Origin: Actinomycetota bacterium
Lineage (GTDB): Bacteria; Actinomycetota; CADDZG01; JAHWKV01
Direction of reading: 5' to 3'
Length of the DNA: 64,000 bases
NCBI GenBank assembly: GCA_035759705.1
Contig: DASTUJ010000138.1
Span: forward strand, 87-64,086
Shown here: one piece after another, positions 51,764-61,897 of the stretch
Layout: the number at the start of each line of letters is the position of its first letter
Numbering within the stretch: the stretch's first letter is position 1
The notes under the pieces: model-generated
Database searches by the model: none
Seen by the model: the letters and a program-made list of their open reading frames with translations, nothing else
Told to the model about the DNA's origin: nothing
Made by a program: the position numbers and the translations under genes

Positions 51764-52132
51764 GTGCCGGACGGCTATTTCGGTTCATATCTAACCCTGG
51801 CGATCTACTCCCTGGCCATGATCGGCCTGGTGGGTGGCACCCTTGGGCTCAACCGCCTGGTTTCCCCCAAGGTGCCCGGCAAAGAGAAGATGACGACCTA
51901 CGAGAGCGGCGTCGACCCCATCGGCAGCGGCCAGAGCCAGACGACCATCCGCTACTACATGTTCGCCCTGCTCTTCGTCATCTTCGACGTCGAAGCGGTC
52001 TTCCTCTTCCCCTGGGCAGTGGTCTTCGAGGAGATCGGGTTGTTCGCCTTCGTCGAGATGATGATCTTCATTCTCATCCTCGCCCTGGGCCTGCTCTACG
52101 CCTGGCGCAAGAAGGTGCTGGACTGGATTTGA
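51764..52132 (+). CDS. nuoA: NADH-quinone oxidoreductase subunit A
   Basis: Three TM helices and the conserved YESGVDP plus FDVE(A/I)VFLFPW motifs. The start is GTG. Confidence 0.9.
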   Translation: MPDGYFGSYLTLAIYSLAMIGLVGGTLGLNRLVSPKVPGKEKMTTYESGVDPIGSGQSQTTIRYYMFALLFVIFDVEAVFLFPWAVVFEEIGLFAFVEMMIFILILALGLLYAWRKKVLDWI

Positions 52133-52193
52133 GAGCTTTCCCAGCACGGCAGGCCACTTCCGCTTCACCGAAAATTTCCCGTAAGGAGCGCTG

Positions 52194-52739
52194 ATGGCCA
52201 CAGAACCCGATGTAGAGAAGGTCAAGCTCCCCAAAGGCGTCAGCTTCCTGCTGAACTGGGGGCGCAAATACTCCCTTTGGATGTTCCAGTTCGGCCTCGC
52301 CTGCTGCTCGATTGAGTTCATCGCCTCGGCCATGCCGAAGCACGACATCATGCGCCTCGGCGTGATCCCGTTCCCGGCCTCTCCCCGCCAGGCCGACCTC
52401 ATGGTGGTCGCCGGCACGGTGACCGACAAGATGGCCCCGGCCATCAAGCGGGTCTACGAGCAGATGGCCGAGCCGAAGTACGTGATCTCGATGGGCTCCT
52501 GTGCCAACTGCGGCGGGCCCTACTGGGACTCCTACTGCGTTACCAAGGGCGTCGACCAGATCCTCCCGGTCGACGTCTACGTCCCCGGCTGCCCGCCCAG
52601 GCCCGAGGGACTGCTCGGCGGCATCATCCGCCTGCAGAACATGATCCAGGGCGAGAACATCAAAGAGAAATGGCAAGGTAGTGACCACACAGGAAAGATT
52701 CCTCAGATCATCGGAACGGGTCGAGCCGGAGGTATTTAG
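52194..52739 (+). CDS. nuoB: NADH-quinone oxidoreductase subunit B
   Basis: N2 cluster ligands are [15 protein letters not shown] and PGCPPRPE. Confidence 0.95.
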
Positions 52740-53229
52740 CCGGCGGGTTTCCGACAAGATCGGGGACCTTGCCACCGGTATAGAGGTTAAATACGGGCAC
52801 ATCTGGGCGACGGTTGAACCGGCGCGCATTGTCGACGTCGTGACCACCCTCAAGACCGACCCGGACCTGCTGTGCAGCTACCTGACCTTCCTATGTGGTG
52901 TCGACTGGGAAGCCGAGGGCTTCGAGGTTGTGATCACCCTCTACTCGGTCACCAACGAGAACACCGTGATCCTGCACGTGCCGCTGGGGGCCGGCGCCAC
53001 CATGCCGACCCTGACCGGCGTATTTCGGAGCGCCAACTGGCACGAGCGTGAGGCCCACGAGATGTTCGGCATCAACTTTGAGGGCCACCCGAACCTGGTG
53101 AAGCTCTACCTGCCCGAGGACTTCGTGGGGCACCCCCTTTTGAAGAGCTTCAAGCTGGCCAGCCGCACCTACAAGCCCTGGCCCGGCGCTAAAGACCCAA
53201 GTGAAGCTGCAGGCGGAGGTCGCGGATGA
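52681..53229 (+). CDS. nuoC: NADH-quinone oxidoreductase subunit C
   Basis: Conserved [18 protein letters not shown] and [14 protein letters not shown] blocks. It overlaps the nuoB 3' end by 59 nt and has no later in-frame start. Confidence 0.85.
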
Positions 53230-58858: not shown

Positions 58859-58880
58859 ATCCAAAACAGACGGAGGGGCT

Positions 58881-60449
58881 ATGAACTTGGTTGAAGAGTG
58901 GGGAATCACGCTGGCGGTGTTTCTGCCACTGCTTGGGGCGATTGTCATTGCCCTGACTCCCAAGGGCATGGAGGGCATCCAAAAGATGCTGGCTCTCGCC
59001 GCAACCGGCGCTGCGCTGCTGGTCGGCCTGGCGCTGACCTTCGCGTTCGAGCACGGCGAGCCCGGAATGCAGTTCGAGAAATCGGCATCCTGGATCCCGT
59101 CGATCGACTCCAACTACCACGTGGGGATCGACGGAATCTCGCTTCCGCTGCTGGTCCTGAGTCTGCTGGTCTGCTTCCTCTGCATCATCTATGCCTGCTG
59201 GCACATCCCGGAGCCGGGCAACGCCAAGGCATTCCTGGCGCTGATCCTGCTGCTCGAGACCGGCATGAACGGGTCGTTCATCGCCCTGGACCTGGTGCTG
59301 TTCTTCGTCTTCTGGGAGCTGGTCCTGGTCCCGATGTACTTCCTCATTGGGATCTGGGGCGGCGAGAACCGCCAGTACGCCTCCATCAAGTTCTTCCTGT
59401 ACACGCTGTTTGGAAGTGTCTTCATGCTCCTCGGCTTCCTGGCGCTGTACTTCCAGTCCGACCCGCACACCTTCGACATGCTGCTGCTGCAGGACGAGGG
59501 CGTTCTCAGCCTGACGCCGGCCCTGGGCAACCTGATCTTCGGGGGCCTGGCGCTCGGCTTTGCGGTCAAGGTGCCGATGTGGCCGTTCCACACCTGGCTG
59601 CCCGACGCCCACACCCAGGCGCCGACCATCGGCTCCGTCCTGCTGGCGGCGGTTCTTCTGAAGATGGGCACCTACGGCTTCATGCGCATCGCCATCCCGA
59701 TCCTGCCCGAGCCGGCGATGAAGTTCGCCCCGGTCATTGCGATCCTGGCGGCGATAGCCATCGTCTACGGCGCATTGTGCTGCCTGGCGCAGACCAACCT
59801 GAAACGGATGATCGCCTTCTCGTCGGTCGGCCATATGGGCTTCGTCATGCTCGGCATCTCCACGATGACCCCGGAGGGTTTCAACGCCGCGGTCTTCGGC
59901 ATGGTTGCCCACGGGGTGGTCACCGGGATGCTCTTCTTCCTGGCCGGTTCGATCAAGGAGCGCTACCACACCTACGAGATGCCCGAGCTGGCCGGCATGG
60001 GGCTCAAGATCCCCCGGATGGCCGGCCTGCTGGCCTTCTGTGCCATCGCGTCGCTGGGGCTTCCGGGGCTCGCCGGGTTCTGGGGCGAGGTGATGGCCCT
60101 GCTCGCGTCCTACCAGCCACTGGAGGGGCTTGACCCGACGATCTTCCGGGTGGCCATGGTCGTCGGAGCCATCGGCACCGTACTCACCGCCGGTTACTTC
60201 CTGTGGATGCTGCAGCGGGTGAACATGGGCAAGGCCCGGGAGGACGGGCACCACAAAGACCTATTCGACGTGGAGCGTCTCGAGGTACTTGCCTGGGCGC
60301 CGCTGCTGGCCCTGATCCTGGTCCTCGGCCTGTACCCCCGCCTGATCATGGACACCACCACCAGCTCGGTCACCGCCCTCACGGAGACCATCACCGGGGA
60401 GAGCGCATCAAGCGATGAGGCCCGCGTGGCGACGGTGGCCGACCACTAA
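58881..60449 (+). CDS. nuoM: NADH-quinone oxidoreductase subunit M
   Basis: An antiporter-like subunit. The likely start is ATG 58881 (MNLVEEWG...) after a GGAGGGG SD. Confidence 0.9.
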   Translation: MNLVEEWGITLAVFLPLLGAIVIALTPKGMEGIQKMLALAATGAALLVGLALTFAFEHGEPGMQFEKSASWIPSIDSNYHVGIDGISLPLLVLSLLVCFLCIIYACWHIPEPGNAKAFLALILLLETGMNGSFIALDLVLFFVFWELVLVPMYFLIGIWGGENRQYASIKFFLYTLFGSVFMLLGFLALYFQSDPHTFDMLLLQDEGVLSLTPALGNLIFGGLALGFAVKVPMWPFHTWLPDAHTQAPTIGSVLLAAVLLKMGTYGFMRIAIPILPEPAMKFAPVIAILAAIAIVYGALCCLAQTNLKRMIAFSSVGHMGFVMLGISTMTPEGFNAAVFGMVAHGVVTGMLFFLAGSIKERYHTYEMPELAGMGLKIPRMAGLLAFCAIASLGLPGLAGFWGEVMALLASYQPLEGLDPTIFRVAMVVGAIGTVLTAGYFLWMLQRVNMGKAREDGHHKDLFDVERLEVLAWAPLLALILVLGLYPRLIMDTTTSSVTALTETITGESASSDEARVATVADH

Positions 60450-61897
60450 TGGACCTAAACCTCCAAGCACTACTGCCGGAGCTGATCCTGACGCTGGCCG
60501 CATGCGGCGTCATGACCATCGACCTGTTCCTCCCCAAGGAGAAGCGTGGGATGGCGTTCCCACTGGCGGTCGTGGGCATTCTGGCCACGCTGGCCGCGGT
60601 GCTCATGCTCTACGGCCAGAACATCACCACGCTGGACGGGATGTTCGTGGTCGACCGGTTCGCGGTGATCTTCAAGATCGTGTTCTGTGTCGCAGCCCTT
60701 CTGGTGTTCGCGGTGTCGCAGCCCTACCTGAACGACGACAACGACGTCCCCCACGGCGAGTACTTCACGATGATGATGTTCTCGCTGCTGGGCATGTTGA
60801 CCATCGCCTCCAGCCGGGACCTGATTGCGATCTTCGTCGCGCTGGAGATGATCTCGCTGCCCGCCTTCATCCTGGCCGGCATCCGCAAGAACGACATCCG
60901 CTCCAACGAGGCGGCCCTGAAGTTCTTCCTGTTCGGAGTCCTTTCGACCGCCCTGATGCTGTTCGGCATGTCGCTGTTCTACGGGCTGACCGGGGCCACC
61001 AACCTGGCCGACGTGTCCGAGGGCCTGGCCGGCCGGACCGACATCGACGAGGTGGCCCTGCTCGCCATCTTGTTCCTGATCGTCGGCTTCGGCTTCAAGG
61101 TCTCCGCCTTCCCGTTCCAGTGGTGGGTCCCCGACACCTACGAGGGCGCGCCCATCCCGGTGGCCGCCTTCCTCTCGGTGGCCTCCAAGACCGCCGGCTT
61201 CGTCGGTCTGTTCCAGGTCATGTTCCTGGGCCTGGGGGAGCTGGCCGACATGTGGCGGCCGATGTTCGCGGTAATCGGCATCGTGACTATGACGTTCGGC
61301 AACCTCGTTGCGATCCAGCAGAAGCAGATAGTCCGGCTTCTCGCCTACTCGTCGATCGCGCAGGCCGGCTACATGCTGGTCCCGCTGGGGGTGGCGAGCG
61401 CCACGAACGGCGAGGTAAACACCCAGATCGTCTTTTCGGTGGTTGCCTACCTGCTGGTCTACGCCTTCATGGAGACCGGCGCCTTCGCGGTCGCCACGGC
61501 GTTCGGCCGCAAGACCGGCAAGTACCTGATCGAGGACTACGCCGGGCTGTTCGCCCGGTCCCCGGCTCTCGCAGTGGCCATGGCGGCCTTCCTGTTCTCG
61601 CTGGCCGGCATCCCCCCGTTTGCCGGGTGGTGGGCCAAGTTCGTTATCTTCCAGACGTTGATCGAGGGCGAAGGCCTCTGGCTGGCCGTCATCATGGCCG
61701 TCAACACGGTCATCGCGATGTTCTACTACCTGGCGGTGGTCAAGAAGATGTTCGTCGACAAGCCTGAGGACGCGGCTGCGGTCCCGATGCCGAAGGTGCT
61801 GGCCGGCGCCATCGGGATTGCTGCAGTAGTGGTGACGGTTGGAGGCTTCCTGCCGGACCTGTTCGGCAAGCTCGCGACGAACTCGAACTTCTTCTAA
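60449..61897 (+). CDS. nuoN: NADH-quinone oxidoreductase subunit N
   Basis: An antiporter-like subunit with a 1-nt overlap to nuoM. It is the last gene of the operon. Confidence 0.9.
   Translation: MDLNLQALLPELILTLAACGVMTIDLFLPKEKRGMAFPLAVVGILATLAAVLMLYGQNITTLDGMFVVDRFAVIFKIVFCVAALLVFAVSQPYLNDDNDVPHGEYFTMMMFSLLGMLTIASSRDLIAIFVALEMISLPAFILAGIRKNDIRSNEAALKFFLFGVLSTALMLFGMSLFYGLTGATNLADVSEGLAGRTDIDEVALLAILFLIVGFGFKVSAFPFQWWVPDTYEGAPIPVAAFLSVASKTAGFVGLFQVMFLGLGELADMWRPMFAVIGIVTMTFGNLVAIQQKQIVRLLAYSSIAQAGYMLVPLGVASATNGEVNTQIVFSVVAYLLVYAFMETGAFAVATAFGRKTGKYLIEDYAGLFARSPALAVAMAAFLFSLAGIPPFAGWWAKFVIFQTLIEGEGLWLAVIMAVNTVIAMFYYLAVVKKMFVDKPEDAAAVPMPKVLAGAIGIAAVVVTVGGFLPDLFGKLATNSNFF

Follow-up and report, generated by a model that had tools for sequence, protein, structure and literature searches.

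The DNA considered here is a 64,000-nucleotide stretch (hereafter the window, positions 87 to 64,086 of contig DASTUJ010000138.1) from an Actinomycetota genome assembly (GCA_035759705.1), which carries an operon for a complex I-like enzyme at positions 51764-61897 of its forward strand. Eleven contiguous open reading frames (ORFs) on this strand follow one another in the order nuoA-B-C-D-H-I-J-K-L-M-N, and the genes for the NADH-oxidising module (N-module), nuoE, nuoF and nuoG, are absent between nuoD and nuoH. The eleven genes are the following:

51764-52132, + strand: nuoA, 122 aa, GTG start; PF00507, E 8e-38; ratio of nonsynonymous to synonymous substitutions (dN/dS) 0.02-0.13; same call on JGI contig L001
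52194-52739, + strand: nuoB, 181 aa; PF01058; NCBIfam NF005012, 225 bits (cut-off 116)
52681-53229, + strand: nuoC, 182 aa; PF00329, E 1e-36
53226-54386, + strand: nuoD, 386 aa; PF00346, E 7e-87
54383-55396, + strand: nuoH, 337 aa, TTG start; PF00146, E 3e-100
55406-56023, + strand: nuoI, 205 aa; Fer4 (4Fe-4S dicluster) families and TIGR01971
56025-56510, + strand: nuoJ, 161 aa; PF00499, E 3e-38
56514-56819, + strand: nuoK, 101 aa; PF00420, E 2e-27; NF004322, 133.6 bits (cut-off 128)
56813-58858, + strand: nuoL, 681 aa; PF00361 and PF00662; NF005141, 637 bits (cut-off 556)
58827-60449, + strand: nuoM, 540 aa; PF00361; TIGR01972, 567 bits
60449-61897, + strand: nuoN, 482 aa; PF00361, E 4e-67

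Each of the eleven products matches the Pfam family expected for it with E values of 1e-27 to 1e-100, except NuoI, for which the 4Fe-4S families match at about 1e-11, and the products of nuoA through nuoM also match the NCBIfam Nuo families. NuoL is full-length and has the long C-terminal extension typical of this subunit. For nuoC, the GTG at 52681 is the sole start codon within the first 40 codons and implies a 59-nt overlap with nuoB. An identical metagenome contig (L001) carries JGI calls for the same nuo genes with the same starts. In this sequence of 65% G+C, the frame signal from G+C at third codon positions (GC3) lies at 0.75-0.95 in the nuo coding frames, which, along with the low dN/dS values described below, indicates that these ORFs are real genes. 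Intergenic spacing across the operon ranges from -59 to +61 nt and thus leaves no space for a hidden gene. Scans of the window with Rfam and for tRNAs gave no matches; a scan for sigma-70 promoters found none and terminator-like matches were mostly intragenic, although such a scan is uninformative for a high-GC actinobacterium.

The absence of nuoE, nuoF and nuoG from the nuoD/nuoH junction, claimed in an earlier note on this DNA because of an overlap of stop and start codon, was confirmed: the junction at 54383-54386 reads TTGA, where the nuoD stop codon TGA (54384-54386) overlaps the TTG start of nuoH (54383). The absence extends to the entire 64-kb window according to both Pfam scans and six-frame tblastn. 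No NuoE, NuoF or NuoG domain was detected by Pfam in about 50 further window ORFs chosen by their GC3 frame signal, and a six-frame tblastn of the window, a check that does not depend on ORF calling, returned only noise (best E = 0.21 over 44 aa) with the Pfam-verified NuoE, NuoF and NuoG of the canonical operon of Nonomuraea gerenzanensis as queries. By tblastn, none of the three genes was found in the ±10 kb around the 77 related loci, and in this search among related loci the canonical Nonomuraea operon was the sole positive. Bacteroidota loci that have nuoABCD with no nearby nuoH were considered as possible carriers of nuoEFG and were negative by tblastn as well. With nuoD followed directly by nuoH and without nuoE/F/G, the operon has the layout of the N-module-less 11-subunit form (NUO11), which Degli Esposti defined by the absence of nuoEFG from the whole genome (PMC4758237). 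A recent deletion of nuoEFG from a canonical actinobacterial operon was considered and rejected in view of the low identity to the canonical operon and the placement in a separate clade, both of which are described below.

The exact NuoD protein of the window was found on soil and farmland metagenome contigs, and its relatives at 52-95% identity all come from metagenome-assembled genomes (MAGs) of uncultured Actinomycetota, as represented by one-genome-per-species GTDB contigs. A cluster look-up and a second homologue search for cultured relatives likewise gave MAG and metagenome entries only. The same 11-gene order occurs in at least 13 related MAG loci (L007-L014, L017, L039-L041 and, as far as they are covered, the short contigs L016 and L027), with gaps of 0-149 nt between nuoD and nuoH. 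All nuo genes except nuoC were compared with three relatives, and these ten are under purifying selection (dN/dS 0.02-0.25); NuoC is the least conserved subunit among relatives (57-81%). The shared gene order together with the low dN/dS values argues that the operon is a maintained functional unit and no decaying remnant.

A second set of complex I genes has been described in Streptomyces, comprising nuoA2, B2, D2 and H2-N2, with nuoD2 at a separate location and reportedly without nuoC2, next to a full nuoA-N operon (PMC3765725, PMC8388888). As a cultured reference, the genome of Nonomuraea gerenzanensis (NZ_LT559118.1, 11.85 Mb; loci L078-L080) was used; this record is labelled 'plasmid I' in PLSDB and has 10 annotated features, but it is evidently the chromosome, as it holds nuoA-N, a nuo2 cluster and an orphan nuoD. 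The canonical nuoA-N operon of Nonomuraea includes NuoE, NuoF and NuoG as verified by Pfam. Its nuo2 cluster has the order A2-[M48 peptidase]-B2-C2-H2-[three unknown ORFs]-I2-J2-K2-L2-M2-N2; the three unknown ORFs between nuoH2 and nuoI2 (L079 14967-18322) encode 582, 134 and 371 aa without a Pfam match. The orphan NuoD (L078 12001-13116), which has no other nuo gene within ±12 kb, is 53% identical to the window NuoD. Overall, the window proteins show 41-70% identity to the nuo2 proteins and the orphan NuoD and 30-52% to the canonical set (nuo2/canonical: A 53/33, B 70/52, C 41/31, D 53/40, H 51/34, I 59/30, J 50/31, K 59/50, L 42/35, M 50/35, N 41/33). Like the window operon, the Nuo2 sets of Streptomyces and Nonomuraea lack nuoE/F/G, and the Nonomuraea orphan NuoD falls into the same clade of the NuoD tree as the window protein and shares its signature motifs NR[HM]DWLS, ENPLG and SMFFVVGD. 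The two arrangements differ in that nuoD2 lies apart from the cluster in Streptomyces and Nonomuraea, whereas both nuoC and nuoD are inside the operon in the window and its relatives, and in that the Nonomuraea cluster is interrupted by the M48 peptidase gene and the three ORFs, whereas the eleven genes of the window are tightly packed.

The NuoD phylogeny that the earlier note had proposed as a check was run as a neighbour-joining tree. The window protein, all its Actinomycetota relatives and the Nonomuraea orphan NuoD group in one Actinomycetota-only clade, which is separate from Thermus, canonical Nonomuraea, mitochondria (Yarrowia) and NdhH, and likewise from the N-module-less enzymes of Brevibacillus, Planctomycetota, Marinimicrobia, Ignavibacteriota and Bacteroidota. 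Within this clade the orphan forms lie nested among those encoded in operons, a branching pattern suggesting that the contiguous operon is the older arrangement. Orphan NuoD proteins of the tryptophan type described below, without any further nuo gene in the surrounding ±10-12 kb, occur in many Actinomycetota genomes (MAG loci L019-L038, L046 and L077, and Nonomuraea gerenzanensis); in L037 (10001-11146), for instance, the neighbours are unrelated genes, among them a NUDIX and a metallo-beta-lactamase fold protein. These orphans in MAGs and Nonomuraea match the separate nuoD2 reported for Streptomyces. The most fitting place for the window operon is the actinobacterial Nuo2 / N-module-less complex I family, to which it adds a new member.

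Within the predicted enzyme, the electron path from NuoI to cluster N2 and the proton pump both look intact. In NuoB, the N2 ligands are present as the tandem C37 and C38 together with C103 and C133 (aligned to mitochondrial PSST), and NuoI contains two CxxCxxCxxxCP motifs at residues 76-87 and 124-135. Between its cluster motifs NuoI has a Lys/Arg-rich insert, and in the clade alignment a conserved C-terminal motif is followed by an Ala/Pro-rich tail that varies among members; that the insert and the C-terminal motif form a docking surface is speculation. The NuoI proteins of L009, L011, L014, L017 and L039 bear a long Ala/Pro-rich extension ending in '...Y..E.AKG(S/T).(P/E)RVA.A.AK.A..R..K', a terminal motif that the window NuoI with its short tail does not have. 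The Glu of transmembrane helix (TM) 5, the Lys of TM7, the Lys of TM8 and the Glu of TM12 in NuoM align with those of Paracoccus NuoM (8qby_M), and in NuoN the TM5 Glu and the TM7, TM8 and TM12 Lys align with Thermosynechococcus NdhB (6hum_B). The charged residues of NuoL are presumably present too, judging by motif alone against the E. coli residues. NuoD lacks the Cys ligands to the [NiFe] centre of group-4 hydrogenases, as there is none in either RMDWLS or SMFFVVGDIDR, and hydrogenase models reach at most about 27 bits.

The site at which the window enzyme departs from other complexes is the quinone pocket of NuoD, a feature that the earlier note had not mentioned. The protein was aligned residue by residue to Thermus Nqo4 (2fug_4), the Yarrowia 49-kDa subunit (6gcs_C) and Thermosynechococcus NdhH (6hum_H), and pocket positions are given in T. 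thermophilus Nqo4 numbering. The following codons encode the main substitutions:

53490-53492, + strand: TGG, Trp89 in place of the quinone-binding Tyr87 (Thermus) / Tyr144 (Yarrowia)
54204-54206, + strand: CTG, Leu327 in place of Arg/Lys350, the Arg/Lys of the E-x-P-[RK]-G-E motif
54357-54359, + strand: TTC, Phe378 in place of Asp401 (Thermus), the Asp of the S-x-D-x-V-x-G motif

Further changes in the pocket are V148 for Phe146 and S137 for Thr135. Thermus His34 and His38 are retained as H36 and H40, so that of the head-group ligand pair His38/Tyr87 the histidine is kept (H40) and the tyrosine is replaced (W89). Besides His38, the beta1-beta2 loop GPQHPxTHG, the N2 ligands and the framework of the NuoH cavity are conserved as in quinone reducers. 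All Actinomycetota clade members that were examined, from operons and orphan loci alike, have tryptophan at the Tyr87 position. At position 327 the exceptions are L016, L027 and L039 with Ser; the most distant member, L040, has Tyr at the Phe378 position and Asp at the Ser137 position, and L016 has Ala at the latter. The pocket changes are absent from all sequences outside the clade that were compared, canonical Nonomuraea NuoD included. The 150 nearest representatives of 50%-identity clusters include 23 in which Trp takes the place of Tyr87, and changes at both 350 and 401 (where the C-terminal part is covered) are found only in those of the NRHDWLS type (P0001, P0084, P0087, P0105 and P0132); the other Trp-bearing representatives, two of which are archaeal NuoCD proteins, retain Lys/Arg and Asp. 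Two further substitutions were discarded as clade markers: Asp139 to Glu in NuoD, since canonical Nonomuraea NuoD has Glu too, and 'ERK' to 'ELK/EHK' in NuoH, since other N-module-less groups show variation at this site too.

The combination of Tyr87 to Trp with a change at 401 was noted before by Degli Esposti, who found it 'unique or very rare' in piericidin-producing Streptomyces and related it to resistance against inhibitors of the quinone (Q) site (PMC4758237). The distribution described above suggests that the paired changes may instead mark the lineage of Nuo2 paralogues as a whole. Site-directed Tyr87 to Trp mutants suffer a severe loss of activity with decyl-ubiquinone, and mutants of this tyrosine lose most of their decyl-ubiquinone activity while keeping activity with short-chain quinones (PMC4758237). 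The substitutions in the window NuoD should alter quinone binding, protonation and inhibitor sensitivity relative to textbook complex I.

N-module-less complex I as such is already well described, also in Actinobacteria, and the architecture of the window operon is in itself ordinary. Such complexes are widespread, and no common partner protein has been found for them (Moparthi and Hägerhäll, PMC3144371); the 11-subunit enzymes are thought to be the energy-coupling core (PMC3144371, PMC11238625). Those of other lineages share the order nuoABCDHIJKLMN, but their NuoD proteins are only 40-48% identical to that of the window, form a separate clade and retain Tyr87, Arg/Lys350 and Asp401. The canonical actinomycete complex I (Nonomuraea nuoA-N; Mycobacterium smegmatis 8e9g) contains the same eleven core subunits, but its operon has NuoE/F/G between D and H, its proteins are 30-52% identical to those of the window (Nonomuraea), and canonical Nonomuraea NuoD reads RMDY where the window protein reads RMDW. 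In direct comparison, the window NuoD scores 308 bits against M. smegmatis NuoD and 354 bits against Thermus Nqo4.

The earlier note had likened the operon to cyanobacterial and chloroplast NDH-1 and to Fpo, a kinship that was not borne out beyond the shared absence of the N-module, as NuoD belongs to an Actinomycetota-only clade apart from NdhH and both the Ndh and the Fpo models of NCBIfam stay far below their cut-offs. NDH-1, a ferredoxin:plastoquinone oxidoreductase, also lacks NuoEFG, and the best solved-structure matches of the window NuoH and NuoN are NdhA and NdhB, respectively; yet NdhH keeps the Tyr, Lys and Asp that the window NuoD has lost, and scores remain below cut-off for NdhH (363 vs 583) and likewise for NdhI and NdhJ. 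To bind ferredoxin, NDH-1 requires the extra subunits NdhS, V, O and L-Q. No Ndh accessory subunit (NdhS, V, O and others) was detected by Pfam in about 60 window ORFs, a scan that covered ORFs down to about 90 aa. Fpo, the F420H2:methanophenazine oxidoreductase of Methanosarcinales, equally consists of a complex I core without NuoEFG, but it needs FpoF, and there is no FrhB/FpoF domain in the window; the models for FpoC, D, H, I, J, K and L are all below their cut-offs (FpoD 344/600, FpoH 263/475, FpoL 470/1050).

The surroundings of the operon include the following genes:

48935-50260, + strand: MenJ-like flavoprotein of the geranylgeranyl reductase family; TIGR02032, 214 bits (cut-off 159)
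50911-51534, + strand: 207-aa ORF directly upstream of nuoA; no Pfam or NCBIfam match
36851-41708, - strand: Rieske/cytochrome b operon encoding a 2x[4Fe-4S] ferredoxin-like protein, a split cytochrome b, a subunit-IV-like/ExtQ-like protein, a Rieske protein, a dihaem cytochrome c and a 347-aa unknown membrane protein
41277-41708, - strand: the 2x[4Fe-4S] ferredoxin-like gene, first of the Rieske/cytochrome b operon, 10 kb from the nuo genes and on the opposite strand

MenJ is the best equivalog for the product of 48935-50260, albeit with 259 bits against a cut-off of 700. A MenJ-like gene upstream of nuoA is conserved in L007, L008, L010, L012, L013, L014, L041, L072 and L080; the last of these instances precedes the canonical nuoA of Nonomuraea (L080 12967-14220, 42% identity), and the gene is not found at the Nonomuraea nuo2 cluster. 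As this neighbour is shared with the canonical Nonomuraea operon, the window operon may occupy the 'canonical' chromosomal position. The 207-aa ORF was considered as a general partner subunit and rejected, since its conservation does not extend beyond the closest relatives (L007, L041 and L072; 68-83%).

The b6f-like complex and the 2x[4Fe-4S] ferredoxin, which the earlier note had joined with the nuo operon into one non-canonical electron transport chain, are indeed present in the window, but there is no evidence for their link to Nuo, as they form an operon of their own on the other strand. For the same reasons (its place at the head of the Rieske/cytochrome b operon, the other strand and the distance of 10 kb) the ferredoxin finds no support as a donor to Nuo. 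The split, b6-like cytochrome b passes the NCBIfam ExtP equivalog cut-off (293.5 vs 290 bits) and differs from the unsplit QcrB type, for which the actinobacterial NCBIfam model gives 116 bits against a cut-off of 500; the subunit-IV-like/ExtQ-like membrane protein has a long Ala/Pro-rich N-terminus. Between the bc-type and nuo operons lie System I cytochrome c maturation genes (ccmA/B/C-like and ccmF; 42333-44352 and 46394-48391, - strand), and synteny of ccmF and ccmA with the nuo genes is also seen in the relatives L007, L010, L013 and L041.

Elsewhere in the window, a vitamin K-dependent gamma-carboxylase homologue (20903-22471, + strand; HTTM E 1e-84, VKGC lumenal domain E 2e-41) adjoins four tandem paralogous genes for proteins of 194-237 aa (22511-25941, - strand). 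The last three paralogues are near-identical and secreted, with a signal peptide, the start 'AENNCDANGPG..EC' and the C-terminal '...DNNN[DN]C', and the first (22511-23095) is more divergent and lacks this end; the secreted proteins contain a long acidic repeat region rich in Gly, Asp and Ser, and their DNA abounds in GC-rich short tandem repeats. The one paralogue tested against Pfam (23356-24021) had no match. These acidic proteins might be substrates of the adjoining carboxylase homologue. Further genes encode a CLP1-type P-loop (polynucleotide kinase-like) protein (32260-33156, + strand) and a SAM hydroxide adenosyltransferase-family protein (33365-34120, + strand).

Considering the operon as a whole, it probably, though by no means certainly, encodes a functional, self-contained complex I-like enzyme without an operon-encoded NADH-oxidising module, and represents the contiguous and complete form of the second ('Nuo2') complex I family of Actinomycetota. 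In such an enzyme NuoB, C, D and I would form the quinone module and NuoA, H, J, K, L, M and N the proton-pumping module. Electrons would enter at the two [4Fe-4S] clusters of NuoI and pass to N2 on NuoB, a membrane quinone would be reduced in the cavity formed by NuoD, NuoB and NuoH, and this reduction would drive proton pumping via NuoL, M and N and the channel of NuoH, A, J and K. Gene content, the lack of nuoEFG in the window, the conserved ligands and pump residues, purifying selection, clade membership and the pocket substitutions are shown directly by the data; which donor and acceptor the enzyme uses and in which direction it runs is what we infer. Menaquinone is the most likely quinone, in view of the conserved MenJ-like neighbour upstream and of general knowledge of actinobacterial quinones. 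As donor, a soluble low-potential carrier such as ferredoxin that would dock on NuoI ranks first, ahead of a shared N-module, then of reverse or other operation, and finally of F420H2. That N-module-less complexes may draw on donors other than NADH, as the earlier note had stated, agrees with what has been proposed or shown in other lineages (PMC3144371, PMC11238625, PMC4453560): alternative donors in Campylobacter, archaea and cyanobacteria were summarised by Spero et al. (PMC4453560), and the 11-subunit enzyme of Desulfitobacterium was described as making menaquinol from cytoplasmic donors (Willemin et al., PMC11238625).

Several points weigh against this assignment. The window contains no FpoF-type, NdhS-type, flavodoxin or pyruvate:ferredoxin oxidoreductase gene, no donor candidate was found, and its sole ferredoxin-like gene is part of the Rieske/cytochrome b operon. 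The severely reduced activity of Tyr87 to Trp mutants with decyl-ubiquinone means that efficient quinone reduction cannot be taken for granted (PMC4758237). The neighbour-joining tree carries no support values. Moreover, the cultured family members also hold a full nuoA-N operon, which leaves room for a role in NADH oxidation through a shared N-module.

This last alternative, in which the complex is an NADH dehydrogenase after all because NuoEFG encoded elsewhere dock on its quinone and proton-pumping core, is the rival that survives best, although it appears rather unlikely. The enzyme would then be a second isoenzyme with an alternative and possibly inhibitor-insensitive quinone site, for which the link of Tyr87 to Trp and the position-401 change with resistance to Q-site antagonists speaks (PMC4758237), as does the coexistence of the nuo2 family with a canonical operon containing NuoE/F/G in Nonomuraea and likewise in Streptomyces. 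From that coexistence it also appears likely that nuoEFG are encoded elsewhere in the genome of the window; by the same token, their presence there would not by itself show that they serve the Nuo2 complex. Against a shared N-module stand the divergence of the docking subunits from their canonical actinobacterial counterparts (NuoI 30%, NuoC 31%, NuoD 40% and NuoB 52% identity) and the lack of nuoEFG in the surroundings of the 77 related loci.

Less probable still is that quinone is not the main substrate of the remodelled pocket and that the enzyme runs in reverse, using the proton-motive force to pass electrons from menaquinol to a low-potential acceptor, or employs another acceptor or binding position. 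The retention of the substitutions across a deep clade under purifying selection would fit such a function, as would the tyrosine mutants, which still work with short-chain quinones although most of their decyl-ubiquinone activity is gone (PMC4758237). Yet His38, the GPQHPxTHG loop, the N2 ligands and the NuoH cavity are those of quinone reducers, and the gene context suggests no alternative acceptor. Cofactor F420 is made by many Actinomycetota. A supply of electrons from reduced F420 through an FpoF/FrhB-like subunit encoded elsewhere, for which Fpo of methanogens sets the precedent, is nevertheless highly improbable, given that Pfam found no gene of this type in the window, that the Fpo models score far below their cut-offs, and that FpoF-containing complexes were found only in Euryarchaeota (PMC3144371).

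The operon adds uncultured soil Actinomycetota to the long list of lineages with N-module-less complex I, and it brings the question of the electron donor no closer to an answer. The sole aspect likely to interest a specialist is the Trp/Leu/Phe pocket of NuoD, which is partly anticipated in the literature. It is conceivable, and put forward here tentatively, that the Nuo2 clade constitutes a distinct class of complex I-like enzymes with a rebuilt acceptor pocket and a different quinone chemistry. If so, these enzymes could be isoenzymes with a natural insensitivity to piericidin and similar Q-site antagonists in soil, and an alternative binding of menaquinone or a mainly reverse operation would be further possibilities. 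The Tyr87 to Trp change in Streptomyces would then be a trait of the paralogue lineage and no adaptation of piericidin producers.

Taken together, the family may be of interest as a deep and widespread clade of paralogues under purifying selection, in which the residues for electron transfer and proton pumping are intact while the key quinone-ligand tyrosine and two neighbouring charged residues are missing. If active, the Nuo2 enzymes would be natural experiments on quinone binding and protonation and on resistance to Q-site inhibitors, and cultured carriers such as Streptomyces and Nonomuraea make the question experimentally tractable.

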